Shown one piece after another: positions 20,336 through 45,747 of a DNA stretch of 64,000 nt. The translations under genes and the position numbers were made by a program. The notes under the pieces were generated by a model. It saw nothing but the letters and a program-made list of their open reading frames with translations. It was not told the DNA's origin and made no database searches. This DNA comes from a virus: IMG/VR virus record IMGVR_UViG_3300035670_000035, positions 32,001 to 96,000 of that record, one strand, 5' to 3'. Within the stretch, counting starts at the first letter, position 1, and each line of letters starts with the position of its first letter.

Positions 20336-21658
20336 ATGGACTCTAAACTAATAAAGATTTTATCTGATATTTCAGAATATCTATCAGAGAAAAAGCTAAA
20401 TAAAGTTTGGGAAGCTGGAAAAGATTGGGTACAATATGCTGGACCACACTTCTCAAATGAAGAATATCTTTCTGCGATAGAAAGTCTTTTAAACGGCTGG
20501 CTAGTTCTTGGTGAGAAAGGTATATCTTTCGAAAATCAATTTCCAAAACTCTTAAATAAAGAATATGGAATATTGACAAATAGCGGAAGTAGTTCTAATT
20601 TAATTATGATGTCAGCTATGACATCTAAAAGATTATATAATTTTCCTAAGAACACAAAAGTAATTACTCCAATAGCAGGATTTCCAACAACTATAAATCC
20701 TATATTTCAAGTTGGTTTTATTCCAGCTTTTGTAGACATTGATTTAGATACTCTTAATCTTAATTTAGATCAAGTAGAAGAAGAGGCCAAAAAAGGTGCA
20801 AAAATCATAACCTTTGCTCATGTTCTTGGTAATCCTCCAAATATGCGAAGACTACAAGAAATTATCAAACAATATAACTTAATTCTTTTAGAAGATTGTT
20901 GTGACGCTTTAGGATCAACATTTGATAATAAACCTCTTGGAAGTTTTGGTGAATTTGCAAGTTGCTCTTTTTATCCTGCCCATCATATGACAATGGGAGA
21001 AGGTGGATTTGTCGCTTGTAATACACATCAACAAGAAATAGTCGCAAGAAGTTTTAGAGAATGGGGACGAGGATGTTATTGCGTAGGTAAAAAAGCTAAT
21101 CTATTAAAGAATGGAACTTGTAAAAGTAGATTTTCTAATTGGCTTCCTTCTTTACCAAATGAAGTTTTTGATCATAAATATGTTTATGATGAAATAGGTT
21201 ATAACTTGAAGCCTATTGAGTTACAAGCCGCTATAGGATTGATTCAAATGAATAAATTGCCAGAGATCCATACAAGAAGAAAATTAAATCATTCTAGACT
21301 TACTAATATTTTTTATAAATTCAAAGAACACTTCATATTACCACGAGCAACTGATTGGGCAGACCCAAGTTGGTTTGCATTTGCTTTAACTATTAAAGAC
21401 AACGCTCCTTTTAAAAGAAAAGATATAGTAAATTTTATTGAAGATAGAAAAATACAAACAAGACCTTATTTTGCTGGTAATATAATGTTACAACCAGCAT
21501 ACTCTGGAATGATTAATCATGAAGAAGTCATAAATAAATATCCAATAGCAAGAAAAGTAACAACAGATACATTTTTTCTTGGTACAAGTCCAGTAATAAC
21601 AAACGAGCAACTAGATTATGTAGAGGAAGTCGTAAATGACTTTTTTAAAACAATATGA
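20336..21658 (+). CDS. rfbH: NDP-4-keto-6-deoxyglucose 3-dehydrase (RfbH/DdhC E1, DegT family)
   Basis: TNSGSSSNL, EDCCDALG, SFYPAHHMTMGEGG (His in place of the PLP Lys), WGRGCYC..C [2Fe-2S] motif, GYNLK, FFLG. Confidence 0.92.
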   Translation: MDSKLIKILSDISEYLSEKKLNKVWEAGKDWVQYAGPHFSNEEYLSAIESLLNGWLVLGEKGISFENQFPKLLNKEYGILTNSGSSSNLIMMSAMTSKRLYNFPKNTKVITPIAGFPTTINPIFQVGFIPAFVDIDLDTLNLNLDQVEEEAKKGAKIITFAHVLGNPPNMRRLQEIIKQYNLILLEDCCDALGSTFDNKPLGSFGEFASCSFYPAHHMTMGEGGFVACNTHQQEIVARSFREWGRGCYCVGKKANLLKNGTCKSRFSNWLPSLPNEVFDHKYVYDEIGYNLKPIELQAAIGLIQMNKLPEIHTRRKLNHSRLTNIFYKFKEHFILPRATDWADPSWFAFALTIKDNAPFKRKDIVNFIEDRKIQTRPYFAGNIMLQPAYSGMINHEEVINKYPIARKVTTDTFFLGTSPVITNEQLDYVEEVVNDFFKTI

Positions 21659-22608
21659 AAATCGTCTACATAACTGGATGTCTTGGATTTATAGGTTCAT
21701 ATGTCACTAGACTTTGCCTTGATAAAGGTTGGTATGTAAAAGGTGTTGATAAAATTACTTATGCAGCAAATAAAAATCTCTTAGATGAATTTCAAAAATA
21801 TAAAAACTTTTCTTTTGTACATTGTGATATAAATGATTTAAAATTTTTATATGATTGTGATTATGTTATTAATACCGCAGCTGAAACTCATGTAGGTAAT
21901 TCTATTAGCAATAGTGATGATTTTATTTCATCAAATATTGACGGAGTTCATAATATATTAAATTTAATAAAAAACTATAGACAAGAATCAAATAAAAAAC
22001 CAATACTTTTACATTTTAGCACAGATGAAGTATATGGCGATATAAATAATGGAATTCATCTAGAAACAGATATTTTAAAACCTTCTAATCCATATTCAGC
22101 AACAAAAGCGGCAGCGGACATGTTAATATTAGCGTGGGCAAGAACCTATGGCATAAATTATGTAATAGTTAGACCAACAAATAATTATGGTATAGGACAA
22201 TATGTTGAAAAATTAATACCCAAAACATGCAAATATTTAAATTTAGGAAGAAAAGTTCCACTTCATAATAATGGAACTCCAATAAGAAATTGGCTACATG
22301 CAGAAGATACTGCAAAAGCGATAATTAAAATTATAGAAAAAGGAGTAAAAAACGATATTTATAATATCTCAGGAGGATTTGAGCAATCAAATTTAGAAAC
22401 AGTAAATAAGATAATATCCATTTTTTTAAATAATAAACCATATGATATTAATGATTATGTAGATTTTTCATTTTCTAGAATTGGCCAAGATATAAGATAT
22501 GCTTTAAATGATAATAAATTAAAACAATTAGATTGGAAAGCAGAAGCAGTTTTTGATAACGAGATAAAAAACATTGTTGAATATTATAAAAATATTTTTA
22601 TTTGGTAA
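21655..22608 (+). CDS. rfbB: dTDP-glucose 4,6-dehydratase (extended SDR)
   Basis: ITGCLGFIG, AAETHV, STDEVYG, NPYSATKAAAD, NNYG..Q..EKLIP, RNWLH. Confidence 0.9.
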   Translation: MKIVYITGCLGFIGSYVTRLCLDKGWYVKGVDKITYAANKNLLDEFQKYKNFSFVHCDINDLKFLYDCDYVINTAAETHVGNSISNSDDFISSNIDGVHNILNLIKNYRQESNKKPILLHFSTDEVYGDINNGIHLETDILKPSNPYSATKAAADMLILAWARTYGINYVIVRPTNNYGIGQYVEKLIPKTCKYLNLGRKVPLHNNGTPIRNWLHAEDTAKAIIKIIEKGVKNDIYNISGGFEQSNLETVNKIISIFLNNKPYDINDYVDFSFSRIGQDIRYALNDNKLKQLDWKAEAVFDNEIKNIVEYYKNIFIW

Positions 22609-22612
22609 ATAT

Positions 22613-23692
22613 ATGACGCATAAAATATTTGAAAATCTTTTTGTTCTAGAATTAGCAAACAACCATTGGGGATCTGTAGACAGAGGAAAGCAAATTATTA
22701 AACAATTTGCAAAAATTGTAAAAAATAATAAAATAAAAGCGGCTATTAAATTACAATTTAGAGATGTAGATAATTTTATCCATAAGGATTTTATTGAAAA
22801 TAAAAATAATATAAATTTATCAAAACTTACAAAAAGAGATAGATATATTCAAAAAACTTCAAAAACAAAACTATCTTATAAACAATTTAAACAATTAATT
22901 GAATATATAAGAAAACATGATTGTATACCAATGTCAACACCTTTTGATGAAAAGTCCGTAGACTGGTGTGTAGATTTAAAATTACCAATAATAAAAATTG
23001 CAAGTTCAGATATTAATGACTGGATTCTGATTAAGAAGATTGCCAACACAAAAATACCAGTTATATTATCAACAGGAGGAGCAAATGATAAACAAATAGA
23101 TGATGTTGTTAAATTTTTTATAAATAGAAATATACCTTTGGCTTTAAATCATTGCGTATCAAAATATCCAAGTGAAAATTCAGAATTAGAGTTAGATCAA
23201 ATTGATTATTTAAAAAGAAAATATCCAGAATTAATCATAGGATTATCTACTCATGAATATAAGGATTGGCATTCCTCTATGTTGATATCTTATGCAAAAG
23301 GAGCAAGAACATGGGAACGTCATATAGATATACCATATCCGCCAAACCACGAACAAAAAGAAGTATCATCATATTGTACACTTCCTGCTCAAGCAGATGA
23401 ATGGTTTAAGGCTTTTAATAAAGCAGTAGAAATGTGCGGCACTTCATCAAGAGCTAGAAGAATTATAGATCATAAAGAAAAAAAATATTTAGAATCTTTA
23501 TATCGAGGATTGTATCTTAAACAAAATTTAAAAAAAGGAACAAAGATTAAATTAAGTCATTTGTATTCAGCAATACCATATCAAAAAGAAATACGTCAAA
23601 TAACGTCTAGAGATTATTTTGAAAATGATTTTATATTAAATAAAGATATGAAAAAAGATTCCCCCTTAACAACGGATGATATTTTATCATGA
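22613..23692 (+). CDS. NeuB/SpsE-family PEP-dependent ulosonate synthase with SAF/AFP-like C-terminus
   Basis: LELANNHWG, KLQFR, STPFDEKSV, KIASSD, LSTGG, HCVSKYP, GLSTHE, ERH; start placed at ATG 22613. Confidence 0.9.
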   Translation: MTHKIFENLFVLELANNHWGSVDRGKQIIKQFAKIVKNNKIKAAIKLQFRDVDNFIHKDFIENKNNINLSKLTKRDRYIQKTSKTKLSYKQFKQLIEYIRKHDCIPMSTPFDEKSVDWCVDLKLPIIKIASSDINDWILIKKIANTKIPVILSTGGANDKQIDDVVKFFINRNIPLALNHCVSKYPSENSELELDQIDYLKRKYPELIIGLSTHEYKDWHSSMLISYAKGARTWERHIDIPYPPNHEQKEVSSYCTLPAQADEWFKAFNKAVEMCGTSSRARRIIDHKEKKYLESLYRGLYLKQNLKKGTKIKLSHLYSAIPYQKEIRQITSRDYFENDFILNKDMKKDSPLTTDDILS

Positions 23693-25425
23693 AAAAAATT
23701 TCTGATATAATAATAGATTTTTTAGAAAAAAAAGGGATAAATACTACATTTACTGTTTCTGGTGGGGGATGTATACATCTTATTGATTCATTAAGACGAT
23801 CTAAGATGAAAGTAATATGTACTCATCATGAGCAATCAGCACTTATGGCTAGTGAAGGGTATTATAGAATGTGTAATAATATATCATTAAATTTAGTAAC
23901 AACTGGCCCAGGAGGGACAAACACCCTAACTGGATTATTGGGATTATGGTTAGATAGCATACCATCAATTATAATATCTGGACAAGTACAAACAAGTCAA
24001 TTATCAAAAGGAACAGGATGTCGTCAGATTGGAGATCAAGAATTTGATATTATTAAGATAGTTAAGCCTATGACAAAATACGCCAAAATGATAACAGATG
24101 CTAATTGTATTATAGAAGAATTAGAAAAAGCATATAATTTAGCACTAGATGGAAGACCTGGCCCAGTATGGCTTGATATTCCATTAGATATTCAAGCTAC
24201 TATGATTTCGGAAAAGTTAAGTGAAGAAGAGAATAAAAAAATAAATAAAAAAATAAATTTTAAAAAAATAGAATTATTTAGAAAATTACTAGAAACATCA
24301 AAAAGACCATTATTTATAGTTGGAAATGGAATTAGATTATCAAATACATATAATGATCTAAATAATATTTTATCAAATTTAAAAATACCAGTAGTTACTG
24401 GTCCTCATTCAGGAGTAGATGCAGTTGATAATACTTACGAATACTATGCTGGAAGAATTGGTATATTAGGACAACTTACATCAAATAAGATTGTTCAAGA
24501 GGCAGATTTATTGATAATGCTAGGGACTCGACTATCAATGAAAATGACGGGATATAATATAAAAGACTTTTCCCCCAATTCTAAGAAAATTATGATAGAT
24601 ATAGATAGAAATGAAATAAAAAAACATAAATTTAATATTGATTTAAAACTAGCCTGTGATTTGCGCGATTTTTTTAATAATATAAAAAATATTAAATTTA
24701 ATTTGAATACAAATGAATGGAGAAGTAAAGTAAAAGATTATAGAAATAAGCAAATCTATGTTTATCCCAAACATGCAAATTTAAAAGACTACGCTAGTCT
24801 TTATTATTTAATTAATCAAGCTCCTAATATATTTAAAAATACTCCAATAATAACAAGCAATGGCAGCGCTCATGTTGTGACACTTCAAACTTATCAATTA
24901 AAAAAAGATCAAAGATTATTTACAAACGTTGGTTGTGCTAGTATGGGTTATGGATTACCAGCCGCAATAGGCGCCTGTATTGCGAACAATAATAAACCAG
25001 TAATCTGTATAGAAGGAGATGGAAGTTTAATGATGAATTTACAAGAGATAGAAACAATTATAGGTTATAAATTACCATTAAAATTATTAGTGATTAATAA
25101 TAATGGTTATCTTTCTATTAAGCTAACTCAACAATCATTTTTTGAGGGCAAAGAGTTTGCAAGCGGGCCATCTAATGGAGTGACTATTCCAAATTATGAA
25201 AAAATTGCGAATGCTTTTGGAATTAAATATTTTTCCATAAAAAATAATCAAGAAATAAAAAAGAATTTAATTGAAATGATGGAATTTGATGGGGCGTGTT
25301 TTGTAGAAATATTTACTCACCCAAAAGAAAAACACGAACCAAAAGTAACACATAAGGGAATTGGAATAGATGGAAAAATTATTCCTGGATCTCTAATAGA
25401 CATGCATATTTCGGAAAATTTTTAA
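23689..25425 (+). CDS. TPP-dependent acetolactate synthase-like enzyme (YerE-like)
   Basis: HHEQSALMASEGY, TTGPGGTN, SGQV, GRPGPVWLDIPLD, SMGYGLPAAIGA, GDGSLMMN..NN. Confidence 0.92.
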   Translation: MKKISDIIIDFLEKKGINTTFTVSGGGCIHLIDSLRRSKMKVICTHHEQSALMASEGYYRMCNNISLNLVTTGPGGTNTLTGLLGLWLDSIPSIIISGQVQTSQLSKGTGCRQIGDQEFDIIKIVKPMTKYAKMITDANCIIEELEKAYNLALDGRPGPVWLDIPLDIQATMISEKLSEEENKKINKKINFKKIELFRKLLETSKRPLFIVGNGIRLSNTYNDLNNILSNLKIPVVTGPHSGVDAVDNTYEYYAGRIGILGQLTSNKIVQEADLLIMLGTRLSMKMTGYNIKDFSPNSKKIMIDIDRNEIKKHKFNIDLKLACDLRDFFNNIKNIKFNLNTNEWRSKVKDYRNKQIYVYPKHANLKDYASLYYLINQAPNIFKNTPIITSNGSAHVVTLQTYQLKKDQRLFTNVGCASMGYGLPAAIGACIANNNKPVICIEGDGSLMMNLQEIETIIGYKLPLKLLVINNNGYLSIKLTQQSFFEGKEFASGPSNGVTIPNYEKIANAFGIKYFSIKNNQEIKKNLIEMMEFDGACFVEIFTHPKEKHEPKVTHKGIGIDGKIIPGSLIDMHISENF

Positions 25426-25426
25426 T

Positions 25427-26059
25427 ATGGTAGTATTTTTAACAGGAGGCAGTGGAGGAATTGGCTCAATTATAAGTTCCGTGCTAAAAACCGAAGGGAT
25501 GGAAGTTATTGAGCCAACCTCTAAAGAGCTAGATTTAACAAGTAATATTAATGTATCAAATATAAAAAAAATAGATGCATTTATACATTGCGCAGGAATA
25601 AATAATCTTGCACATCATAAAGATATAAATAGAAACGAATTATTAAATATATTTAATATAAATACTTTCAGTTTTATTGAATTATGCAATAAATTAAATA
25701 TTAATTATGGCGGAAATATTATTGCCATAGGCTCTATATACGCAACTAAAGCTAAAGAAGAAAGAATGCAATATACAATGTCAAAACACGCTCTGTATGG
25801 ATGTATAAAAACTTTAGCTTTAGAAAAAGCAAAAGATTTAATAAAAGTTAATATGATTTCTCCAGGATTTGTTAATACCCTACTAACAAGGAAAAATAAT
25901 ACTAAAGAAAGAATAGATTTTCTAAATTATAATATTCCATTAGGTATGACAAATCCATATGATATAGCTAATCTTTGTGTTTTTTTAATAAAATATAATA
26001 ATTCAATAACTGGCCAAAATATTGAAGTAGATGGAGGCTATTCATTAAAAGGAATATAA
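25427..26059 (+). CDS. Short-chain dehydrogenase/reductase
   Basis: TGGSGGIG, HCAG, IGS, YTMSK, VNMISPG, TGQNIEVDGG. Confidence 0.92.
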   Translation: MVVFLTGGSGGIGSIISSVLKTEGMEVIEPTSKELDLTSNINVSNIKKIDAFIHCAGINNLAHHKDINRNELLNIFNINTFSFIELCNKLNINYGGNIIAIGSIYATKAKEERMQYTMSKHALYGCIKTLALEKAKDLIKVNMISPGFVNTLLTRKNNTKERIDFLNYNIPLGMTNPYDIANLCVFLIKYNNSITGQNIEVDGGYSLKGI

Positions 26060-27093
26060 TGAATACATTCTTAATAAATAATAAAAAATTTATAATAAAT
26101 AATCAAAAAATAAAAGATAGATTATTAATTAAATCTCATCCTAAAGACTATGAAGTAATTTTTGATTCTTTCTTTTCATTATTCTTTTCTTTTAAAGAAG
26201 ACGAAATAGTTCTAATTGATAAAAATATAAGAAAAATATATGATATTAATCATAGTAAATTAATTGAAATAGAAGCCATGGAAGAAAATAAAACTATTGA
26301 AACAGTTCTAAATGTTTGTGAAAAATTATCATCTTTTAATTTTAATAAAGGTAATACATTGATCGTGATTGGTGGAGGAATTCTGCAAGACATTGGGGCT
26401 TTTACAGCAAAAATATATAAAAGAGGAATAAGATGGATATATGTTCCAACTACGCTTCTTTCACAATGCGATAGCTGTATAGGAGGCAAAACGGCATTAA
26501 ATTTTAATAAATATAAAAATCAATTAGCTTTATTTTCTGCCCCAGATAAAGTTATTATTGATACTAATTTTTTGAATACTTTAAGCAATGAAGAGATAAA
26601 ATCTGGATATGGAGAAATTATTAAATTCTTTTTGATCGGTGGAGATTATTATATAAATAATTTTGAAAAATTTGATATTAAAACAAATATTATTCATTCA
26701 TTGAATATCAAAAAAGCAATTATAGAATATGATGAATTTGAAAATGATGAAAGAAAATCGCTAAATTATGGACACTCATTTGGACATGCGATAGAGTCTA
26801 TAACTAATTATAAAATTTGCCATGGCGAAGCAGTAATGCTAGGAATTGAAATTATAAATAAACTTTTTTTAAAATCTTCTCGCATAAGTAAAATTATAAA
26901 TAAATTTACAAATCTAGATAGAATAAAAGATATAAATCTAATAGATTTAATTGAAAGAATAAAAACTGATAAAAAAGTAAATGGAGATATAATAAGCTTA
27001 GTTAGTATTAAAAAATTTGGTGAAACAATTTTCATTAAACAAAAATTAGATAATAGTTTATTAAATAAATTAAATGAAATATTTACTAGTTGA
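26059..27093 (+). CDS. 3-dehydroquinate synthase-like sugar-phosphate cyclase
   Basis: GGGILQD, PTTLLSQCDSCIGGK, KN, GEIIK, LNYGHSFGHAIE, HGEAV (all three Zn ligands present). Confidence 0.9.
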   Translation: MNTFLINNKKFIINNQKIKDRLLIKSHPKDYEVIFDSFFSLFFSFKEDEIVLIDKNIRKIYDINHSKLIEIEAMEENKTIETVLNVCEKLSSFNFNKGNTLIVIGGGILQDIGAFTAKIYKRGIRWIYVPTTLLSQCDSCIGGKTALNFNKYKNQLALFSAPDKVIIDTNFLNTLSNEEIKSGYGEIIKFFLIGGDYYINNFEKFDIKTNIIHSLNIKKAIIEYDEFENDERKSLNYGHSFGHAIESITNYKICHGEAVMLGIEIINKLFLKSSRISKIINKFTNLDRIKDINLIDLIERIKTDKKVNGDIISLVSIKKFGETIFIKQKLDNSLLNKLNEIFTS

Positions 27094-28051
27094 TTTTGGC
27101 GCATCGTACATAAAAAATATCGTTTACGATACAGATTCAAAAAATATATTATATTCTAATACAATAGATTCTCCATTTAAAACAAGTAAAAGAATATCTA
27201 GATCAAAATTAAAAAATATTTTAATAAATATTATAGAAAAAACATCTAATATAGATGGAATAATAATATGTACAATCATCGGAGGAGGGTGGATTGATGA
27301 CATTTACTATTCTTGGCAATCAGATAATAAAAATGTAAAAGAACATTGTCTAATAAGTGGGCTTTTTATAAATTCAAGAAACTATCATGTACATGCACAT
27401 CATAAATATAATAGCCTAAGTGAAACCCAAGATAATTTAGAAATTTTAGGCAAAATAAAAAATATTCCGATATATAGTTCTCTAGGAGATACAAATTGTG
27501 TTATTAAATCTCTAGATTTAAAAAATAATGAATATATAATTAATATTGGAACAGGTTCTCAAGTCATATATAAAGATAGAGATAATAAGATTAATATAAA
27601 TAAATATATTCCCGCAGGAAGAGCATTACTTGTTTATGATAATTTTTTTAAAACTTTAGGTTTAAATTTTTTTAAAATGTTAAAAACTATAAAACCAGAA
27701 GATGTATACGCCAGCAATCTTAATATTAATTTAAATCTATTCGAACAAGCATTTGATTATGTTAATGGGGGCAGCATTAGTAATATAAATGAAGATAATC
27801 TCACTATTAATAATTTATTAGGATCAATATTACGTTGCTTAGTTTTACAATACAAACAATTTATAAAAGATAAATCAAAAAATACATTAATATTAACAGG
27901 TGGAATACCCAAGAAATTACCAATATTAAAAAAACTTTTTAAATTTTATTATTCAAATTATAAAATTAAAATTATTTTAAATAATATAGAAGATACTCAT
28001 TTAGGTATGATTAGATATTTGGAAGATAAATTAGAAAATGAACAAAGATAG
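27074..28051 (+). CDS. FGGY-family / sedoheptulokinase-like sugar kinase
   Basis: LLVDFGASYIK, LGDTNC, INIGTGSQV, LTGG (actin-like ATPase motifs). Confidence 0.7.
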   Translation: MKYLLVDFGASYIKNIVYDTDSKNILYSNTIDSPFKTSKRISRSKLKNILINIIEKTSNIDGIIICTIIGGGWIDDIYYSWQSDNKNVKEHCLISGLFINSRNYHVHAHHKYNSLSETQDNLEILGKIKNIPIYSSLGDTNCVIKSLDLKNNEYIINIGTGSQVIYKDRDNKININKYIPAGRALLVYDNFFKTLGLNFFKMLKTIKPEDVYASNLNINLNLFEQAFDYVNGGSISNINEDNLTINNLLGSILRCLVLQYKQFIKDKSKNTLILTGGIPKKLPILKKLFKFYYSNYKIKIILNNIEDTHLGMIRYLEDKLENEQR

Positions 28052-29083: not shown

Positions 29084-30259
29084 ATGAGTAACTCTTTAAA
29101 AGAAACATATTATGGTAAAAAGATAGATACTGCAAATATTCTAAATATAGAAGATGCAGTAAAATTAATAAAAGATAAAAAAGTTGTTATTGTTACTGGA
29201 GTTACTGGTCAAGATGGAAGTCATATGGTTGATTTCTTATTAAAGAATACAGACTATACTATTTTTGGTGGAGTCCGAAGATTAAGTGTTTATAACCATA
29301 AAAATATTAATCATATTAATTCTGATAGATTTCATTTAATTAATTTTGATTTAACAGATTCTCATGCAATTGCAAGAATTGTAGAAAAATTACAACCAGA
29401 TTATTTTATTAATTTTGCAGCTCAAAGTTTTGTAGCAAGCAGTTGGGATTTTGCTAGACAAACTTGGGCAGCAAATTCAACTGCTATTTTAGATATTTTA
29501 GAAGCTATTAGATTATATAAACCCAAGTGTAGACTTTATCAAGCAGGATCTAGTGAAGAATTTGGAAATGTTATTTATGCACCTCAAGATGAAAAACATC
29601 CATTAAGACCAAGAAGCCCATATGGAGCTAGTAAGGCCGCTTCAAGGCAACTAATTAAAGTATATAGAGATTCATACAATCTTTATGCGATACAGGGTTG
29701 GTTGTTTAATCACGAGGGAATAAGAAGAGGAGAAGAATTTGTCACAAGAAAAATTACTAAAAATGTTGCTAGAATATATCATGCATTAAAAAATAATGAA
29801 GAATTTAAACCATTAGAATTAGGAAATTTAGATGCAAAAAGAGATTGGAGTGATTCTGAAGATTTTATTGAGGGAGTTTGGATGATGTTGAATCAGGATA
29901 AATATAATCCTAATTATGATGGAAATCCAAAAGAATATGTTTTCTCTTCAAATGAAACACATACTATTAGAGAGTTTGTAGAAAAAGCATTTAAAATTGC
30001 TGGGATAGAGGGTCATTGGATTTATACAAATGATGGCAGACCAGAAGACGAAGGTTTTTATTTAAAAGATGATAAAGGACAATACAAACTTTTAGTTAAA
30101 ATTAATCCAAAATTTTATCGTCCAGCCGAAGTAGAATTATTATTGGGTAACTCTAATAAAGCAAGAGAAGAGCTTGGATGGAAACCAAAAATTTCATTTG
30201 ACAATCTAGTAGAAAAAATGGTAAAATGGGATGTAGAAAAAAATGATATTATTTTTTAA
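29084..30259 (+). CDS. gmd: GDP-mannose 4,6-dehydratase
   Basis: TGVTGQDG, AAQSFV, QAGSSEEFG, PRSPYGASK, FNHE..RRG..FVTRKI, GNLDAKRDW, RPAEVELLLG. Confidence 0.95.
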   Translation: MSNSLKETYYGKKIDTANILNIEDAVKLIKDKKVVIVTGVTGQDGSHMVDFLLKNTDYTIFGGVRRLSVYNHKNINHINSDRFHLINFDLTDSHAIARIVEKLQPDYFINFAAQSFVASSWDFARQTWAANSTAILDILEAIRLYKPKCRLYQAGSSEEFGNVIYAPQDEKHPLRPRSPYGASKAASRQLIKVYRDSYNLYAIQGWLFNHEGIRRGEEFVTRKITKNVARIYHALKNNEEFKPLELGNLDAKRDWSDSEDFIEGVWMMLNQDKYNPNYDGNPKEYVFSSNETHTIREFVEKAFKIAGIEGHWIYTNDGRPEDEGFYLKDDKGQYKLLVKINPKFYRPAEVELLLGNSNKAREELGWKPKISFDNLVEKMVKWDVEKNDIIF

Positions 30260-31346
30260 TGTATTCATAACAAATAAAAGAATAAGTGGCCCAAATTCCT
30301 GTGATAGATTAGATTTATTTAAATACTGTTTATCAAGTTATTCATGCATAGATGATATAAAAGATGTTGTTATATATTGCGAATTAGATTCAAATTATAA
30401 AAGCAGGGAAATTGAATTAAAAGATTACATATATACCATTTTTAATGGTAAAAATATACAATATTATAATTATAGTCCATGCAATCAAAAACAATGGCAA
30501 ATAGCTTTACAAGATTCAAATATATTAAATTCATCGGAACCAATATTGTATTCTGGTAACGATGATCATATATTTATTGATTATGATTTAATATCAATTC
30601 GTGAAGGAATAAAACTATTAAAAAATGAATCAAATGAACAAATTAATAGTTTTGCAATAAGTCATTGGCCAGAATCTATTTCTTATGCATACCATTATCC
30701 TTTTGTAGATAGAGGAATATTTTGGGAAAGTGAAATTTTAGCGACCACATCGATAGTCATGGTAAATAATACATTTTTTAAACATTTATTTTTTAATTTA
30801 GAAATGGGAGAAATATTTATAAGAAGAACAGATCCAATTTTAACAAATGTTTATCCATATACTGGAAATTTTGCTTTTCCTTCTAAAAAAACACATCCAA
30901 AAGTAAAAACATTTATTCCATTAAAAGGAGAGATAATTAGACATTTTGATTCATATCCTTACTTTGTTCAAATGCCACTTTCAATTTGTCCTCAATTAAA
31001 AATACCAAATGGATTTTTTGAAAATAATATAAAAATAAATTATTGTGGAAAAGTAAAAAGAGACTTTTACAATGTCAATCCATTGGCTGAAAAATATCTT
31101 TTTGAAGATTATACAAATGGAGTAGATGATAAAAAATTATTAGAAGATTTACCGCTATTTTGGAGAAATAAAATTTCAGAGATAGAAGATCATAGCAATG
31201 AATATTCTCGTCAAGATTTAATTGACGCTAGAAATATCAATCATAAAAATTTAATGACAGTGCCGCATAATAGAATTCACGAAGGAGTTCATTATCATGG
31301 ACCCCTTAATTTAGAAGAAAAATATATTAAATTAGGTTATAGATAA
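30243..31346 (+). CDS. Hypothetical protein, possibly GT-A-like
   Basis: Located inside the sugar operon; YSGNDDHIFID resembles a DxD-region motif. Confidence 0.5.
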   Translation: MILFFNVFITNKRISGPNSCDRLDLFKYCLSSYSCIDDIKDVVIYCELDSNYKSREIELKDYIYTIFNGKNIQYYNYSPCNQKQWQIALQDSNILNSSEPILYSGNDDHIFIDYDLISIREGIKLLKNESNEQINSFAISHWPESISYAYHYPFVDRGIFWESEILATTSIVMVNNTFFKHLFFNLEMGEIFIRRTDPILTNVYPYTGNFAFPSKKTHPKVKTFIPLKGEIIRHFDSYPYFVQMPLSICPQLKIPNGFFENNIKINYCGKVKRDFYNVNPLAEKYLFEDYTNGVDDKKLLEDLPLFWRNKISEIEDHSNEYSRQDLIDARNINHKNLMTVPHNRIHEGVHYHGPLNLEEKYIKLGYR

Positions 31347-31360
31347 TTTTAAATTATTAT

Positions 31361-32086
31361 ATGAATATATTAATCCCTATGGCAGGATTAGGAGAAAGAT
31401 TTTCTAAATCTCATCCAAATAAAATTAAACCACTAATAAATGTTTATAATGAACCAATGATACAAAAAGTTCTAAAAAATCTAAATCAACAAGAAGATAT
31501 TAATTTTATTATAATAACATTAAAGATAATATCTGAAAATCAAGAATTTATAAAAATTTTAAAAAATTTAAATATTAAATATACGTTAATAAGTATTGAT
31601 GAAAAAACCGATGGGCCAGCTTGCACATGCTTATTAGCAAAAGAATATATTAAAAACGAACCACTAATTATAATTAATTGCGATCAAATAATTTTAGATT
31701 TTAATTTAAAAAACTTACTTGATTTTAGCAAGTTAAATAATGCGGATGGGGTTATTGGAGTTTTCCATTCAAATTCTAGAAAAAATAGTTATATAAAACT
31801 AGGTGAAGATTTGACCATACAAGAAGTAAAAGAAAAAATCGTTATTAGCAATATAGCTACAAATGGATTACATTTTTGGAAGAACGGAAATGACTTTATA
31901 AGATCAGTAGAAGAGATGATTTCTAAAGATGATAGATATTCAAATGAATTTTATGTTGCGCCAAGTTACAATTATATGATAAAGAATGGCAAAAAGATAC
32001 TACCATATTATTATAATTTACATTATCCTATTGGTATACCAGAGGATCTAATGTATTTTGAAAAATATATATATGAAAATATATAA
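31361..32086 (+). CDS. Sugar-phosphate nucleotidyltransferase
   Basis: ILIPMAGLGERF..KPLI, TDGPACT, IINCD, ATNG, EFYVAP.YN. Confidence 0.88.
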   Translation: MNILIPMAGLGERFSKSHPNKIKPLINVYNEPMIQKVLKNLNQQEDINFIIITLKIISENQEFIKILKNLNIKYTLISIDEKTDGPACTCLLAKEYIKNEPLIIINCDQIILDFNLKNLLDFSKLNNADGVIGVFHSNSRKNSYIKLGEDLTIQEVKEKIVISNIATNGLHFWKNGNDFIRSVEEMISKDDRYSNEFYVAPSYNYMIKNGKKILPYYYNLHYPIGIPEDLMYFEKYIYENI

Positions 32087-32399
32087 AATCAAAAACTTTA
32101 AAGACGGTTGGTTTATAGGAAATTTTAAACCAACAATATTTAAAACTAAAGATTTTGAAATATGTTATAAAAAGCATAAGAAAAATGAAAAATGGCCTAT
32201 CCATTATCACAAAATTGCGACAGAGTATAATTATTTAATCAGCGGAAAAATGAAAATACAAAATAAAACTTTAAAAAAAGGTGATATATTCGTATTATAT
32301 CCTAGTGAGGTTGCGAATCCAATATTCCTAGAAGATTGTGAATTAATCGTAGTGAAAACACCTTCGATAAAAGGAGATAAATACCATGTTAAATTATAA
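32073..32399 (+). CDS. Cupin-fold protein
   Basis: GWFIGNF, HYHK..E..YLISG, GDIFVLYP.E; start placed at ATG 32073. Confidence 0.8.
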   Translation: MKIYKIKNFKDGWFIGNFKPTIFKTKDFEICYKKHKKNEKWPIHYHKIATEYNYLISGKMKIQNKTLKKGDIFVLYPSEVANPIFLEDCELIVVKTPSIKGDKYHVKL

Positions 32400-33600
32400 C
32401 ATATTTAAAACTGAAGATCAGTTAGATAAAAATTTTTACGAAAGATATTTTATTGTCTCTTATGATTTAGAATCAAAAACTAATCTTAGAGATGCTGCAT
32501 GGAATCTTGCAATAGGCCAATCTATAGGTAATCCAAGCGCAAGATCCGAATTTGAAACTCAAGATATGATAGACAATCATTGCGTATTAATATTGGCCGA
32601 TGAGAAAGAGCTTTTGCAAAAGAATAAAGGAAATGTAAAATTCGCCTTCCCAGAAACAAATATAAATTTTGAAACAGATGGAATAAGTCAGCTTTTAGTT
32701 CAGATCATGGGCGGACAATGCGACATAGACATTATATATCGCTGTTTTGTAACAGACCTACAATTAACAGAAAACATGAAAAAAATTCTAAAAGGTCCAA
32801 AAATAGGTTTAAAAGAAATAAAACAATATTGTAATATAAGTAATGACAAACCAATATTTGGCGGTATTGTTAAACCAAAAATAGGATTATCTCCAGAAAA
32901 AAATCTTGATCTTGTAAAACAGATGATTGACGGAGGATGTAATTTTATTAAAGAAGACGAAATTCTTTCTGATCCGCAACATTGCCCAATTCATAAAAGA
33001 GTTCCATTAGTTATGAACTATTTAAGGAATAGTGGTTTAAAAGTTTTTTATGCTGTATCTATACATGCAGATCCTTCACAAATTCTAAAAAGAGTTAAGC
33101 AAGTTTATGAATTAGGTGGAAATGGCGTTCATATTAATTTTCACTGTGGATTAGGAGCATATAAAAGCGTAAGAGAATTAAATCTTCCTATCCTAGTTCA
33201 TTTTCAAAAAAGTGGAGATAAGATTTTAAATTGTATAGATCATAGATATGGTATAGATCAAAATGTTATATTTAAGCTGGTCGCTCAAAGTGGTTGCTCC
33301 ACTCTGCATGCAGGAATGATTGGTGGATATATGGATAATGAGACAATAGAAGTTAAAAAGACAATAAAAATCTTAAATGATGAAAATGCTGTTCCTGCAC
33401 TTAGTTGTGGCATGCATCCAGGATTAATTGATTACATTATGAATGAAGTAGGTCATGGAAATTGGATGGCCAATGTAGGAGGAGCGCTTTCTTCTCATCC
33501 AATGGGTACTCTAGCTGGTACAAAAGCTATGCGTCAATCTATAGATAAAAATTATGGTATAGAATATCAAAAAGCTATAGATAAATGGGGTAAAAAATAA
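32386..33600 (+). CDS. RuBisCO-like protein (form IV RLP)
   Basis: GGIVKPKIGLS (K175/K177), GGCNFIKEDE (K201, D203, E204), LVHFQ (H294), LHAG (H327), PALSCG, VGG..HP.G..AG..A; lacks R295 and loop-6 K334 equivalents. Confidence 0.92.
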   Translation: MLNYNIFKTEDQLDKNFYERYFIVSYDLESKTNLRDAAWNLAIGQSIGNPSARSEFETQDMIDNHCVLILADEKELLQKNKGNVKFAFPETNINFETDGISQLLVQIMGGQCDIDIIYRCFVTDLQLTENMKKILKGPKIGLKEIKQYCNISNDKPIFGGIVKPKIGLSPEKNLDLVKQMIDGGCNFIKEDEILSDPQHCPIHKRVPLVMNYLRNSGLKVFYAVSIHADPSQILKRVKQVYELGGNGVHINFHCGLGAYKSVRELNLPILVHFQKSGDKILNCIDHRYGIDQNVIFKLVAQSGCSTLHAGMIGGYMDNETIEVKKTIKILNDENAVPALSCGMHPGLIDYIMNEVGHGNWMANVGGALSSHPMGTLAGTKAMRQSIDKNYGIEYQKAIDKWGKK

Positions 33601-33664
33601 TGAGTATAGAAATAAATAAATGCAACAATAATGATTATGGCATAGATTTTACATATAAAATTAT

Positions 33665-34099
33665 ATGAGAGTCATCTCTCATAGAGGCAACCTTTTAGGA
33701 ATACAAAAGAAAACAGAAAATAATCCAGATCAAGTAGACAAAGTATTGTCAATGGGTTTTGATTGCGAGATAGATGTGTGGTATAAAAATAATAATTGGT
33801 ATTTAGGTCATGACAAGCCAATTTATAAAATAAATGAAATTTTTTTAGAAAATAAAAAATTATGGTGTCATGCAAAAAACTTAAATGCTTTAAGTCTTAT
33901 GTTAAAGAATAGAAATATTCATTGCTTCTGGCATCAAAAAGATGATTTTACAATAACCTCTAAAGGTTATATTTGGACATATCCAAACAAAAATACAACA
34001 GACAATTCTGTAATAGTTTTAAAAAATAAAAAAAGTAAATTGCCTAAAAATCTTTTTGGAATATGTACAGATTTTGTACTTTTATACAAAAATACTTGA
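33665..34099 (+). CDS. Short GDPD/PLC-like phosphodiesterase
   Basis: ISHRGN, EN, CEIDVW, LGHD, WCHAKN, GICTD. Confidence 0.75.
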   Translation: MRVISHRGNLLGIQKKTENNPDQVDKVLSMGFDCEIDVWYKNNNWYLGHDKPIYKINEIFLENKKLWCHAKNLNALSLMLKNRNIHCFWHQKDDFTITSKGYIWTYPNKNTTDNSVIVLKNKKSKLPKNLFGICTDFVLLYKNT

Positions 34100-36047: not shown

Positions 36048-36695
36048 ATGATATTAAATATAAATTCTGCAGAAGTTCGTATTCAAGAAAATGAATCTAA
36101 TATAAAAGGTCTTAAATTTATACCTCAAATAACAAATTTTGGTCCAAAAGGAAATGATGAAGATCAATTACCATTTAGCACAGGTTTTGCAATAGAAGTA
36201 TCTCCATCAAATTTTTTTCTTACTGAGGAACTTACTAAAAAATATGCAAAACATCATATAGTTGAAATTGGAGTTCATAGAAATGGACAAAATTCTTTTA
36301 CTCGCGCAATGCTTAATCATAAACCAAAAAATTCAAAATATTTAGGTATAGATTTAGAGAGTAAAACCTTCTTAAATAATCAAGAAAATAATATTTACAC
36401 AATACAAGCCAACTCTTTTGAGCAAGAAAGAGTAAGGGCTTACATGCATGAAATAGGTATAGACAAAATATCAATATTTTTTATTGATGGCTGGCATTCT
36501 GTAAATACAATTATAAATGATTGGAAATATACAGATTTACTAGCTGATGATGGAATAGTGATTTTTCACGATACGAATTATCATCCAGGGCCACCTATTT
36601 TATTGGAAGCCATTGATAAAAATTTATATGACATTAAAAAATATTTTGAAAATGATAGAGCAGATTGTGGGATGGCGGTTGCTTTCAAAAAATAA
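36048..36695 (+). CDS. Class I SAM-dependent methyltransferase (Methyltransf_24-like, probably glycan-modifying)
   Basis: IVEIGVHRNG, LGIDL, FFIDGWHS..ND, GIVIFHD. Confidence 0.8.
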   Translation: MILNINSAEVRIQENESNIKGLKFIPQITNFGPKGNDEDQLPFSTGFAIEVSPSNFFLTEELTKKYAKHHIVEIGVHRNGQNSFTRAMLNHKPKNSKYLGIDLESKTFLNNQENNIYTIQANSFEQERVRAYMHEIGIDKISIFFIDGWHSVNTIINDWKYTDLLADDGIVIFHDTNYHPGPPILLEAIDKNLYDIKKYFENDRADCGMAVAFKK

Positions 36696-42974: not shown

Positions 42975-43190
42975 ATGGCATCATTAGACGATATTTATGA
43001 TATGATTCAAAAATTAGAGGATTCTGATATAGAATATCTTTTGATAACTATACAGAAGGGCAAAAAGACTGGTAAGGCTGATGTTTTTTATTCGTTAAAA
43101 GATAAAAATTCATTTAGAATTTTAGCCCAAGGCTTAGATTCTTTTAATAGAGAAATTGATAAATTAGATGGAGAAATTGGAAATGATTAA
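42975..43190 (+). CDS. Small hypothetical protein
   Basis: 71-aa ORF between the exonuclease and dnaE. Confidence 0.55.
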   Translation: MASLDDIYDMIQKLEDSDIEYLLITIQKGKKTGKADVFYSLKDKNSFRILAQGLDSFNREIDKLDGEIGND

Positions 43191-45747
43191 AGAATTTGAA
43201 TCTAGATTTAAAGACTTAGACTTACCTCTTCATGGAGTTAGACTTCCAGAATTTAAAATCGAAAATAAGTATAAACATGAAGTAGGCATTAGTGAAGATT
43301 CTAGTAATTATGACTTCCTAAGAGCTTTATCTTTAAAAGGTTTTAAAGACTTAAATATTAACAAAGATTCACAAGAATATAAAAAATACATCGAAAGAGC
43401 AAAATACGAACTTGAAACATTAAAAGAACTAGGATTTATTGACTACATTCTTCTTGTATGGGATGTTATTAATTTTTGCAAAGAGAATAATATACCAGTT
43501 GGTCTAGGTAGAGGTTCTGCTGCTGGTTCACTTATATTATATTTAATTGGAGTCACAAGGATTGATCCTGTTAAATATGACCTTTATTTTGAAAGATTTA
43601 TATCCAAGATTCGAGCTAAAAAGCAGGTTGTTGATGGAGTAACCTATTTGGATGGTTCTTTAATGTGTGACGTTGATCTTGATATTTGTTATTATAATAG
43701 AAGCAAAGTATTAAATTATCTAGAAACCAAATTCTTGGGCAAAACAAGTAAAATATTAACTTTAAATACTTTAAGTGGAAAACTTTTAATGAAAGAGTGT
43801 GGCAAAATTATTGGAGAAAAAACAGATCAAGAAATGACTGAAGTTTCAACATTAATTCCTAAAATATTCGGTCAAGTAAAAGATATTTCTACAGCATATG
43901 AAGAAGTTAATAAATTTAAAGAATGGTGCGAAGAAAATAAACAAATTTATCAGATTGCATTGAAATTAAGGAATCTTATTAAGAATAAAGGAGTTCATCC
44001 ATCTGGAGTTCTTTTGTCTCATGATAATTTAAATAATTCTTGCCCAACAGAGTTATCAAGCGATAAAGAATCTGTTTCTAGTTTTGACATGAGTTGGGTG
44101 AGCTTATTTAATATTAAACTTGATATTTTAGGTTTAAGAAGCGTTTCTGTAGTAGATGACGTATGCAAAAGTATTGGTATAAAAATTACAGATATTGATT
44201 TGGACCATGAATCTATTTATAGAAATCTTCAAGATTTAAGATGTCCTCATGGATTATTTCAAATCGAAGCAGATACCAACTTTAAAGTATGCCAAAAAGT
44301 AAAACCCAAGAATCTAGAAGAACTTAGTGGAGTATTGGCTCTTGCTAGACCTGGAGCCTTACAATTCGTAGATAAATACGCAGCTCATACAAATTATCAA
44401 CAATCAGAAAGTATCCATCCATTCTTTGATGATATTCTAAAAGAAACTGGTGGAGTAGCTTTATATCAAGAACAACTAATGAAAATGGCTCACAAGATTG
44501 GCTTTACATTAGACGAAGCAGAAATCTTAAGAAGAATTGTAGGTAAGAAGAAAGTAGAAGAGATTAAAGATTGGCAAAAGAAAATTGAAAAGAAATGTAA
44601 AGAAAATAAAATACCAAAACAAGTAGGCGAAATTCTCTGGAAAATTTTAGAGGATTCTGCAAATTATTCATTTAATAAATCTCATTCTCTAGCCTATGCA
44701 GCTTTGGCTGCTTGTACAATTTACTTAAAGTTTAATTATCCACAACAATTTTTCTTGTCCTTATTAAAGATGACAAGACATGAGCCAGATCCTATTGGTG
44801 AAATTTCAAAAATACAAAAAGAGATGGCACATTTTAATATTAAATTATTAAAGCCTCACATTATCAAATCTGATATGGACTTTTCAATTGAGGATAATGA
44901 TATTAGATTTGGTCTACTTTCTGTAAAAGGCATCTCAGATAAATCTATTGAGAAGCTCAATAGTTTTAGAAATAAATATTCTAATAAATTTGAAATTTTT
45001 CAAGCAGCAGAAGAAGCCGATTTAAATATCGGAGTATTATGCTCCTTAATTCAAGCGGGTGCTTTAAGTGGTTTTAAACAAAGCAGAAGTAAAATTGTTT
45101 TAGAAGCTCAACTCTGGAATATTTTAACAACCAAAGAAAAGAGATACGTTATTTCTTTTGCTGATAAATTTGATCATGATTTAATCAGAATTATTAAACA
45201 TTTAAATAAATTTACCGATGAGAAGAATAAGGTTATTATTAAAGATGGTCGAATGGAGACTATTAAATCGAAATATGAACCATATTTAAAAATATATAAT
45301 CAAAATAGTAAAAGTGAAAGTTTCGCTAATTGGTATTATGAAAAAAGATTATTAGGCTATACATACGAAAAAACGCTTAAAGATATCTTTTTAGATAAGA
45401 AAGACGACTTAATATCATTAATTGATATTAATGATATGCCAATAAATGCTAAAGTTTCATTTGTTGCACAAGTTGAGGAAGTTTATTCTGGAGTTTCAAA
45501 AAGCGAAAAGAAAACCAAATATGTAAGATTAAAAGTCTCAGACGAAACAAGTAATTCAACGGTATTATTCTTTAATGATAAAATAGATACAAATAAAATA
45601 TTAAACAAAAGCAAGAACTTTGAAGAAGGTAATATTGTCATATTTAAAGGCATAAAAAGAGATGATTGTGTTTTTGGAGATTTAGGTGCAATCCAAGATC
45701 ATGATATTTATATGAAACTTAGTGAAGTTAAGAATATAAAAACTTGA
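43168..45747 (+). CDS. dnaE: DNA polymerase III alpha catalytic subunit lacking PHP (start may be 43183)
   Basis: GRGSAAGSL, DLYFERF, DVDLD, HPSG, KLDILGL, GLFQ, YQEQLM, YSFNKSH, IRFGL..VKG, C-terminal OB fold. Confidence 0.95.
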   Translation: MEKLEMIKEFESRFKDLDLPLHGVRLPEFKIENKYKHEVGISEDSSNYDFLRALSLKGFKDLNINKDSQEYKKYIERAKYELETLKELGFIDYILLVWDVINFCKENNIPVGLGRGSAAGSLILYLIGVTRIDPVKYDLYFERFISKIRAKKQVVDGVTYLDGSLMCDVDLDICYYNRSKVLNYLETKFLGKTSKILTLNTLSGKLLMKECGKIIGEKTDQEMTEVSTLIPKIFGQVKDISTAYEEVNKFKEWCEENKQIYQIALKLRNLIKNKGVHPSGVLLSHDNLNNSCPTELSSDKESVSSFDMSWVSLFNIKLDILGLRSVSVVDDVCKSIGIKITDIDLDHESIYRNLQDLRCPHGLFQIEADTNFKVCQKVKPKNLEELSGVLALARPGALQFVDKYAAHTNYQQSESIHPFFDDILKETGGVALYQEQLMKMAHKIGFTLDEAEILRRIVGKKKVEEIKDWQKKIEKKCKENKIPKQVGEILWKILEDSANYSFNKSHSLAYAALAACTIYLKFNYPQQFFLSLLKMTRHEPDPIGEISKIQKEMAHFNIKLLKPHIIKSDMDFSIEDNDIRFGLLSVKGISDKSIEKLNSFRNKYSNKFEIFQAAEEADLNIGVLCSLIQAGALSGFKQSRSKIVLEAQLWNILTTKEKRYVISFADKFDHDLIRIIKHLNKFTDEKNKVIIKDGRMETIKSKYEPYLKIYNQNSKSESFANWYYEKRLLGYTYEKTLKDIFLDKKDDLISLIDINDMPINAKVSFVAQVEEVYSGVSKSEKKTKYVRLKVSDETSNSTVLFFNDKIDTNKILNKSKNFEEGNIVIFKGIKRDDCVFGDLGAIQDHDIYMKLSEVKNIKT

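Follow-up and report, generated by a model that had tools for sequence, protein, structure and literature searches.

Four contiguous genes on the plus strand of the genome of a large uncultured phage, at positions 31361-34099 of the window (the whole 64,000-nucleotide stretch that was analysed), encode a nucleotidyltransferase, a cupin, a RuBisCO-like protein (RLP) and a miniature GDPD-type phosphodiesterase. We propose that they form a conserved biosynthetic cassette, with the RLP and the nucleotidyltransferase as its core, which would turn a keto-sugar phosphate into a nucleotide-activated donor; we give this reading a probability of roughly 55% and infer the substrate, the chemistry and the order of steps from sequence. 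The cassette closes a sugar-gene island on its 3' side, and a gene for a UvsX-like recombinase follows. Gene content and coordinates agree with the earlier note on this DNA, which had described the four genes as contiguous at the end of a sugar operon. Adjoining genes overlap by 14 nt at the transferase/cupin junction and again at the cupin/RLP junction; the mechanically called cupin reading frame begins at TTG 32058, and the ATG at 32073 gives a product of 108 amino acids. The genes considered here are as follows.

29084..30259, plus strand: GDP-mannose 4,6-dehydratase, Gmd (PF16363, E 2e-101)
30243..31346, plus strand: 367-aa gene between Gmd and the transferase, possible GT-A-like glycosyltransferase (a weak lead)
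31361..32086, plus strand: nucleotidyltransferase of the sugar-1-phosphate NTP-transferase type, 241 aa (PF00483)
32073..32399, plus strand: small metal cupin, 108 aa from ATG 32073 (HxH...E motif, AF2 fold)
32386..33600, plus strand: RLP, 404 aa, P0001 (PF00016)
33665..34099, plus strand: miniature GDPD/PLC-like phosphodiesterase, 144 aa (family profile, fold, catalytic motifs)
36048..36695, plus strand: SAM methyltransferase-like protein, 215 aa (Methyltransf_24 E 4e-5 and CmcI-type E 1.2e-3, both sub-threshold)

An 11/12 match to a sigma-70-like promoter occurs at 30198-30227, just upstream of the 367-aa gene, but promoter-like counts in the promoter/terminator scan equalled chance expectation.

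Active site and relatives of the RuBisCO-like protein

The RLP belongs to the RuBisCO large-subunit superfamily (PF00016, 115.8 bits against a cut-off of 30.1, E 2.9e-33), with 8dht as its best PDB match (E 8e-31) and 98 RuBisCO/RLP chains matched at E<1e-5. It scores far below every NCBIfam equivalog cut-off, including TIGR03326 (144.7 versus 497 bits), PRK04208 (134.8 versus 438) and PRK13475 (87.6 versus 489). An active-site signature computed over 49 family sequences, with identity down to 32%, has K175, K177, K201, D203, E204, S379, G381 and G403 kept and N123G, H294Q, K334Y and G380C substituted in all 49, while H327 is kept in 47 and R295K, H298D and G404A are found in 46, 43 and 40, respectively. 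In the alignment, K163/K165 of the phage protein correspond to K175/K177, K189/D191/E192 to K201/D203/E204 and H308 to H327, as the earlier note had read them, and its list of lost residues holds for E60 (Gly44), N123 (Gly110) and loop-6 K334 (Tyr315). It had also counted H294 as kept, but that column holds Gln274, a glutamine in 49/49 family members; it is His272, conserved close by, that aligns with H292. The arginine at R295 is indeed absent, yet to call it lost overstates a conservative replacement by Lys275. With Gly44, Gly110, Gln274 and Tyr315 at E60, N123, H294 and K334, the protein lacks residues of bona fide RuBisCO (forms I-III). Judged from its sequence, the RLP is not a carboxylase: the enolisation core is retained and the carboxylation residues are missing.

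Among characterised RLPs, OiaX (3-oxo-isoapionate-4-phosphate decarboxylase) and its relatives in the breakdown of apiose and four-carbon acid sugars act on small keto-sugar phosphates and share with our protein Gly at N123 and Tyr at K334. However, identity is only 25%, the phage RLP scores 114.1 bits against a cut-off of 700, and OiaX-type RLPs keep H294 and R295 but lack K177. OiaX operons are moreover catabolic and carry a DUF1537-type (four-carbon acid-sugar) kinase, of which there is none near the RLP, so that score and operon both speak against membership in this family.

Phylogenetic placement of the protein, which the earlier note had recommended, separated the family as a clade of its own (SH-aLRT 99), distinct from the references used, which were limited to MtnW, OiaX and forms I-III; its position beside MtnW is provisional because IV-Photo, NonPhoto, DeepYkr, AMC and GOS references are absent from the tree. 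The family was found on 372 IMG/VR contigs as well as on SAR11 chromosomes, and cellular carriers of the clade comprise SAR11, CPR bacteria, DPANN archaea, Legionellaceae, Turneriella and Azospirillum, the cellular members branching basally. A tblastn search with the RLP found no match among 50,697 records of cultured phages.

Phage RLPs have already been published as "Form IV-like" (Jaffe, Castelle, Dupont and Banfield, 2018, Mol Biol Evol; PMC6389311), a divergent clade that occurs in Beckwithbacteria and, across many environments, on contigs of large and Myoviridae-like phages. These proteins keep the canonical residues only in part, their function was left open, and no gene neighbourhood, fusion or pathway was reported for them (PMC6389311). 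Our clade includes 23 viral entries and one from Beckwithbacteria, the Beckwithbacteria locus of the family (L102) showing 46-47% identity; the published sequences themselves are not in the tree. Compared by description rather than by sequence, both sets contain phage and Beckwithbacteria RLPs, whereas the clade described here extends to SAR11, DPANN, Legionellaceae, Turneriella and Azospirillum. We found no description of the four-gene cassette in the literature on RLPs with cupins, nucleotidyltransferases, cytidylyltransferases or polysaccharide biosynthesis. It is the cassette, and not phage RLPs as such, that appears to be undescribed.

Conserved linkage, fusions and partner genes

Open reading frames of 128 independent loci were clustered for neighbourhood analysis, and linkage was counted in 66 viral loci with full flanks and 29 cellular loci, a neighbour being a gene within 4 kb of the RLP. 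By this measure the transferase accompanies the RLP in all but one of the viral loci (65/66) and all but one of the cellular loci (28/29), and the cupin does so in 61/66 and 11/29, respectively, with 58 of 81 cupin genes lying directly upstream of the RLP. The mini-GDPD accompanies the RLP in 58/66 viral loci and is missing from many cellular ones; when full-length enzymes are included, as in several DPANN archaeal loci where one takes the place of the mini-GDPD, the loci that have a GDPD-type enzyme alongside the RLP number 58/66 (viral) and 18/29 (cellular). Two proteins (P0122 and P0123) are triple fusions of the form RLP(1-395)-NTP(398-~700)-cupin(712-814), and there are also NTP-cupin fusions (L087, L070, L038) and HAD_2-NTP fusions (L015, L020, L069). 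The adjacency, recurring in 128 independent loci and as gene fusions, is far beyond chance. A functional tie of the RLP to the nucleotidyltransferase and cupin is supported at the sequence level, because synteny is near-universal, the genes overlap by 14 nt and RLP-NTP-cupin fusions occur naturally. The DUF7796 family (A4) also accompanies the cassette in relatives; it gave no PDB profile match and has no homologue within this window.

The linkage recurs in glycan contexts of both phages and cells, which agrees with the biosynthetic setting proposed in the earlier note. Neighbours of the cassette include Gmd, FkbM- and CmcI-type methyltransferases, WavE, GT2 and GT9, and further UDP-GlcNAc 2-epimerase, a CMP-sugar synthetase-like protein and LicD. 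In 30/80 viral loci a homologue of the methyltransferase-like gene is found within the cassette or next to it; here the methyltransferase-like gene is 2.4 kb downstream, past the UvsX-like gene. The Gmd gene of this phage (TIGR01472, 322 bits, below the cut-off of 415) is located two genes upstream of the cassette. The intervening 367-aa gene has neither a Pfam match nor a homologue in any of the other 128 loci, and may encode a GT-A-like glycosyltransferase, GT2 clusters being among its structural neighbours in the ESM Atlas (TM 0.46-0.52).

The nucleotidyltransferase is a member of the sugar-phosphate nucleotidyltransferases (PF00483, 45.7 bits against a cut-off of 21.2, E 7.8e-12) and the sole PF00483 gene within the 136-kb phage record. 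Its family profile (A5) best matches 4evw (E 3.6e-38), an uncharacterised protein listed as an NDP-sugar pyrophosphorylase of Vibrio cholerae, followed by GMPP, RmlA and GlmU at about 1e-10.

The cupin falls below threshold at the Pfam level (Cupin_7 E 1.5e-3, 18.7 against a cut-off of 27), with 20/29 of its relatives matching Cupin_7 (best 4e-7) and Cupin_2 also seen among them. Its conserved metal motif (H49-x-H51...E56) and AF2 model, a beta-barrel with pLDDT 95.9 and 224 PDB cupin matches at E<=1e-3, place it in the cupin superfamily as defined by the double-stranded beta-helix fold and HxH...E motif. The closest folds are 7zvm/7zvy, minimal phosphomannose isomerases from Thermococcus that superpose with an rmsd of 2.0 A at 25-26% identity (E 2e-6); KdgF comes next. 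Fold similarity among small cupins is promiscuous, which is a point against the proposed biosynthetic reading.

The mini-GDPD itself has no Pfam match, and only 2 of 43 relatives have one, at E about 0.03. The family profile nevertheless matches the GDPD 7e0v across the N-terminal motifs that carry the catalytic residues (E 5e-5), and H6, R7, E35, D37 and H49, invariant in all 43 sequences together with H69 and K71, align to the HR...E.D...HD catalytic motifs characteristic of GDPD (PF03009). The AF2 model (pLDDT 97) has only GDPDs among its top Foldseek matches (prob 0.96-0.99, TMq up to 0.61). Unlike full-length GDPDs the protein is not a full (beta/alpha)8 barrel, with 144 versus about 240 amino acids and a TMt of only 0.26-0.41.

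Candidate routes to an activated donor

If the proposed biosynthetic reading is correct, the RLP would bind Mg2+ on Asp191/Glu192 next to a carbamylated Lys189 and use Lys163/Lys165 to enolise a keto-sugar phosphate, then reprotonate the enol to act as an epimerase, or as an isomerase that shifts the carbonyl. RuBisCO misprotonates its own enediol to give the C3 epimer xylulose-1,5-bisphosphate, and epimerisation should therefore be within reach of an RLP-type active site. The cupin, resembling a minimal phosphomannose isomerase, could convert the ketose phosphate to an aldose phosphate, and a mutase would move the phosphate to C1. No mutase gene was recognised in this phage, in which the activity would have to be host-supplied; in some relatives it may reside in the HAD domain fused to a second transferase. 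The transferase would then make the NDP-sugar, to be tailored or transferred by the neighbouring Gmd, short-chain reductases, methyltransferases and glycosyltransferases, with the mini-GDPD performing some phosphodiester step to which we assign no place in the route. The order of four steps cannot be universal, because the cupin occurs in 11/29 cellular loci and the mini-GDPD is missing from many. The phosphodiesterase has no evident part in a plain NDP-sugar route, which counts against this best explanation. That this whole branch of the RuBisCO superfamily is more specifically a dedicated keto-sugar-phosphate epimerase/isomerase, opening a hitherto unrecognised way to make a rare sugar activated by a nucleotide, or a sugar-phosphate donor, for glycans on surfaces or virions, we regard as a tentative proposal with clearly less than an even chance of being right. 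Nothing in the data speaks for the branched sugar that the earlier note had envisaged as a product.

The order of transferase and cupin genes resembles that of ManC/AlgA-type enzymes (bifunctional type II phosphomannose isomerase/GDP-mannose pyrophosphorylases), an arrangement that is mirrored by the NTP-cupin fusions. A split ManC supplying plain GDP-mannose to Gmd was rejected as the main explanation, because the NCBIfam search gave no match to ManC (4evw being nearest to the transferase), the linkage of these separate genes is to the RLP and not to Gmd, and triple fusions exist.

The product of the cassette might instead be a phospho-alcohol activated by a nucleotide, for instance a ketose or alditol phosphate linked to CDP and comparable to CDP-ribitol or CDP-6-fructose. 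From it a LicD-type or other transferase would install a phosphodiester decoration on a glycan, and the GDPD-type enzyme would provide, edit or recycle the diester. Known cytidylyltransferases do act directly on ketose phosphates (the CDP-6-fructose and CDP-xylulose routes), the transferase gives weak IspD and NTP_transf_3 matches, and the frequent company of GDPD-type enzymes would find a use. In four Legionellaceae loci a LicD gene (PF04991, E 3e-43) divergently adjoins RLP-NTP, which suggests a phospho-alcohol rather than a glycosyl donor there. LicD was, however, seen only in Legionellaceae, no reductase is consistently linked, and the transferase profile is nearest to GMPP, RmlA and GlmU and only weakly related to IspD/inositol-phosphate cytidylyltransferases. 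We consider this alternative unlikely.

Activation could also come first, with the transferase or the host making an NDP-hexose, Gmd converting it to an NDP-4-keto-6-deoxy sugar, and the RLP and cupin acting as epimerase or ketoisomerase on the nucleotide-bound keto-sugar. The cupins RmlC and FdtA work on such substrates and HxH-motif cupins include NDP-sugar 3,4-ketoisomerases; Gmd is upstream here, 29/66 viral loci have a Gmd/SDR cluster no more than 4 kb from the RLP, in many cases just behind the cassette, and the kept P1 phosphate site (S379, G381, G403) could conceivably hold a diphosphate. But Gmd is outside the core, with just 5/29 cellular loci having it close to the RLP, the best folds for the cupin are phosphomannose isomerases and KdgF rather than RmlC or FdtA, and we know of no RuBisCO-family enzyme that acts on a cyclic nucleotide-sugar, making this scenario quite improbable.

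A role in methionine or 5'-deoxyadenosine salvage, of the MtnW or Rhodospirillum rubrum type, or in form III-like nucleotide breakdown, with the neighbouring genes unrelated, is very unlikely. MtnW/YkrW (form IV-YkrW) shares the RuBisCO fold and K175, K201, D203 and E204 with the RLP, enolises a keto-sugar phosphate without carboxylation and is the nearest reference in our small tree (SH-aLRT 92, long branch), and the best NCBIfam match of the RLP is form III. In the R. rubrum MTA-isoprenoid shunt an RLP isomerase and a small cupin together act on a ketopentose phosphate; set beside the cassette by description only, the shunt is a salvage route that ends in DXP and has neither nucleotidyltransferase nor GDPD. 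The RLP is, however, only 24.5% identical to MtnW, scores far below the MtnW (125.2 versus 409 and 100.2 versus 513.6) and form III cut-offs, and belongs to a family whose active site departs from that of MtnW at K177, H294, R295, H327 and K334. The reference mtnW adjoins mtnX, whereas no methionine-salvage genes stand beside any RLP homologue and mtn, deoA and e2b2 are absent from the conserved neighbour families of the 128 loci; the family instead occupies a biosynthetic context and is in places fused to the nucleotidyltransferase. Scores and neighbourhood are thus both contrary to a DK-MTP-1-P enolase, and the methionine-salvage reading was rejected on residues, scores and context. The outcome that the earlier note had set against its own proposal, homologues beside mtn genes and no conserved linkage to the nucleotidyltransferase or cupin, is not what the 128 loci show, in view of the linkage, the fusions, the glycan context and the absence of mtn neighbours. 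Finally, a working RuBisCO carried as an auxiliary metabolic gene was rejected and has practically no chance of being correct despite the intact metal and carbamate centre and K175/K177, since E60, N123, H294 and K334 are replaced throughout the family, the NCBIfam scores (TIGR03326 among them) are contrary and the gene context lacks a linked small subunit, PRK or R15P isomerase gene.

Possible implications for phage and microbial surfaces

To our knowledge, all characterised RLPs act in salvage or catabolism. If true, the tentative proposal of a dedicated epimerase/isomerase branch would represent the first biosynthetic, glycan-directed role of the RuBisCO fold. With a clade that is linked and in places fused to a nucleotidyltransferase within glycan loci, the RuBisCO active site would gain a use in biosynthesis, and the large phage "Form IV-like" group, open since 2018, would acquire a function. 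The core pair of RLP and transferase is present in culturable Legionella species, among them L. drozanskii, L. nautarum and L. maceachernii. Given the abundance of the cassette (372 IMG/VR contigs plus SAR11), its product may be a common, unrecognised part of aquatic microbial or virion surfaces, and such a surface component would bear on phage-host recognition.

Cassette genes and their phage surroundings

The RuBisCO-like protein (RLP) of the window belongs to a 136 kb IMG/VR record (estimated 87% complete, ~28% G+C) encoding a UvsX-like recombinase, a DnaB-like helicase, a ribonucleotide reductase and a DnaE-type polymerase. The polymerase shares no more than 31% identity with that of any cultured phage, so by this gene the phage is not T4-like. 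Upstream of the RLP cassette runs a series of sugar genes (DegT/RfbH-like enzyme, two 4,6-dehydratases of which one is Gmd, NeuB, TPP enzyme, DHQS-like enzyme and SDRs), and the recombinase gene is the downstream neighbour.

Features of the window
20336-28051: sugar island with DegT/RfbH-like enzyme, second 4,6-dehydratase, NeuB, acetolactate-synthase-like TPP enzyme, short SDR, DHQ-synthase-like gene and a 325-aa gene without assignment
30243-31346, + strand: 367-aa gene between Gmd and the nucleotidyltransferase, no Pfam match
31361-32086, + strand: nucleotidyltransferase, 241 aa, PF00483 above cut-off
32073-32399, + strand: small cupin, most likely ATG start, read from the DNA
32386-33600, + strand: RLP, RuBisCO large-chain homologue, 404 aa, PF00016 (E 2.9e-33)
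33665-34099, + strand: miniature GDPD, 144 aa, no Pfam match
43168-45747: DnaE-like Pol III alpha replicative polymerase

On the DNA, the cupin start overlaps the transferase stop, and the cupin stop the RLP start, by 14 nt each. The transferase is the single PF00483 gene in the entire phage record; its family profile best matches the uncharacterised structure 4evw (E 3.6e-38), with GMPP, RmlA and GlmU at ~1e-10. The cupin retains the HxH...E metal motif and its relatives match Cupin_7 or Cupin_2; its model (pLDDT 96) is nearest to the minimal Thermococcus phosphomannose isomerases 7zvm/7zvy (E 2e-6, 25-26% identity, rmsd 2.0 A), with KdgF next. The last of the four genes encodes a miniature GDPD of 144 aa, ~100 residues shorter than normal and below the Pfam threshold. 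Across 43 aligned relatives, H6, R7, E35, D37, H49, H69 and K71 do not vary; the family profile matches these residues to the catalytic motifs in GDPD 7e0v of Pyrococcus (E 5e-5), and a PDB fold search with the protein's model (pLDDT 97) returned only GDPDs at the top. The gene calls of the earlier note, including a "short GDPD-like" protein, are thus borne out. None of the other 128 loci has a homologue of the 367-aa gene, whose structure neighbours in the ESM Atlas hint weakly at a GT-A/GT2-like fold.

Recurrence across viruses and cells

Relatives of the RLP form a large family in the protein database (53-97% identity) and are encoded on 372 IMG/VR contigs and at 48 cellular loci. Cellular carriers include a complete Pelagibacter chromosome, many SAR11 single-cell genomes, Woesearchaeota, Nanoarchaeia, Patescibacteria (including Beckwithbacteria), Verrucomicrobia, Turneriella, Azospirillum, Elusimicrobia, three Legionella species, Tatlockia and one Francisellaceae genome. 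ORFs were called and clustered in 128 loci, and neighbours were counted within 4 kb of the RLP in 66 viral loci with at least 4 kb on each side and in 29 cellular loci.

Genes within 4 kb of the RLP (viral; cellular loci)
Nucleotidyltransferase: 65/66; 28/29
Cupin: 61/66; 11/29
Miniature GDPD: 58/66; 13/29
Full-length GDPD: 0/66; 5/29
Methyltransferase: 39/66; 2/29
DUF7796 protein: 35/66; 5/29
Gmd/SDR: 29/66; 5/29

The core of the cassette is therefore the RLP plus the transferase, with cupin and phosphodiesterase as very frequent additions; in 58 of 81 cases the cupin gene directly precedes that of the RLP. FkbM- and CmcI-type methyltransferases, WavE, GT2 and UDP-GlcNAc 2-epimerase are further conserved neighbours. 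The Pelagibacter RLP neighbours a GT9 heptosyltransferase, a 2-hydroxyacid dehydrogenase and a CMP-sugar synthetase-like gene. At 117-132 kb on the complete Candidatus Pelagibacter sp. Uisw_094 chromosome, miniature GDPD, transferase and RLP, without a cupin, adjoin the GT9 and CMP-sugar synthetase-like genes; the ~4 kb downstream is nearly free of ORFs of at least 90 aa. Two IMG/VR contigs labelled GVMAG and binned as giant-virus MAGs (L075, L087) carry the cassette, one with a transferase-cupin fusion.

No sequence-level sign of a shared pathway is stronger than the joining of consecutive or cooperating enzymes in one protein. Among longer proteins, a search turned up two triple fusions of 813-817 aa, arranged as RLP (1-395), transferase (398-~700) and cupin (712-814), and transferase-cupin fusions occur in loci L087, L070 and L038. 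HAD_2 domains of beta-phosphoglucomutase/phosphatase type are fused to a second nucleotidyltransferase paralogue adjoining the cassette (L015:4907-6262, L020:10563-11957, L069:5499-6905), which suggests a mutase or phosphatase step without counterpart in the window. P0124, a 724-aa protein from a 59-kb contig, is a family RLP fused to ~330 C-terminal residues that match no Pfam model and resemble none of the cassette proteins.

Active site and phylogeny of the RLP

The family was aligned with form I, II and III enzymes, the methionine-salvage enolase MtnW and the apionate-pathway RLP OiaX, and active-site residues were tallied in 49 dereplicated members, down to 32% identity. The window RLP keeps K175 and K177 (K163, K165), K201, D203 and E204 (K189, D191, E192), H327 (H308), S379, G381 and G403. 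Replaced are E60 (Gly44), N123 (Gly110), H294 (Gln274), R295 (Lys275), H298 (Asp278), K334 (Tyr315), G380 (Cys341) and G404 (Ala367). H294, previously listed as kept, is thus lost; the conserved His272 pairs with H292. Most positions are invariant in 49/49 members, with R295K in 46, H298D in 43, G404A in 40 and H327 kept in 47, so that the pattern is that of a selected active site and not of decay. Residues for enolisation of a keto-sugar phosphate are kept and those for carboxylation, hydration and cleavage replaced. The RLP falls far under every NCBIfam equivalog cut-off (form III, form II, MtnW, OiaX).

All 49 members group in one clade (SH-aLRT 99) in a tree built rapidly by maximum likelihood from 61 sequences. 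The clade lies on the RLP side (97), separate from both forms I-III and OiaX-type RLPs, and its sister is MtnW, on a long branch (92); this deep placement is provisional because the reference set lacks the IV-Photo, NonPhoto, DeepYkr, AMC and GOS clades. Within the family, the earliest branches are those of Proteobacteria, spirochaetes and Elusimicrobia, then DPANN/SAR11, then Planctomycetes and Patescibacteria (Beckwithbacteria), then a phage-dominated crown including the window RLP. This position fits the phage/Beckwithbacteria clade published as "Form IV-like", its function left open and its neighbours not discussed (Jaffe et al., 2018; PMC6389311), of which the window RLP is probably a new member. 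Our literature search found no paper on the cassette, its fusions, its extension to glycan loci of cells or the active-site signature shared across the family.

A predicted sugar-activation route

Characterised RLPs are enolases or isomerases, and RuBisCO itself forms xylulose-1,5-bisphosphate via enediol reprotonation. With its carbamate-Mg2+ centre, K175 and K177 retained, the RLP would abstract a proton beside the carbonyl of a phosphorylated keto-sugar; since residues for CO2 or O2 addition are absent, the enediolate could only be reprotonated, giving an epimer or a shifted carbonyl. The phosphomannose-isomerase-like cupin would then yield an aldose phosphate, which a mutase (in some relatives, the HAD domain) would convert to the 1-phosphate for NDP-sugar synthesis by the transferase. 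Such a scheme would parallel the route from fructose-6-P to GDP-mannose, plus one extra reshaping step. We put a biosynthetic sugar-activation cassette, as the general reading, slightly above even odds (about 0.55), and each specific chemistry lower.

The phosphodiesterase does not fit neatly into an NDP-sugar scheme. A variant that we keep alive is a nucleotide-activated sugar or polyol phosphate installed as a phosphodiester, favoured by the phosphodiesterase together with LicD in Legionella; in Legionellaceae a divergent LicD phosphotransferase gene adjoins RLP-transferase. In a third variant, likewise less probable than the general reading, Gmd would make an NDP-4-keto sugar on which RLP and cupin then act. 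The gene context that, by the earlier note, would have refuted its proposal was not seen: no methionine-salvage, AMP-pathway or Calvin-cycle gene recurs near the RLP in the 128 loci, and linkage to the transferase is conserved. The DUF7796 family that often accompanies the cassette (alignment A4, with L054:5886-6644 plus 61 further ORFs from related loci) is ~250 aa long, with motifs CLSGxxR ... YDxVIRxRxD, no PDB profile match and no member in the window; it may supply the transferase that the pathway still lacks.
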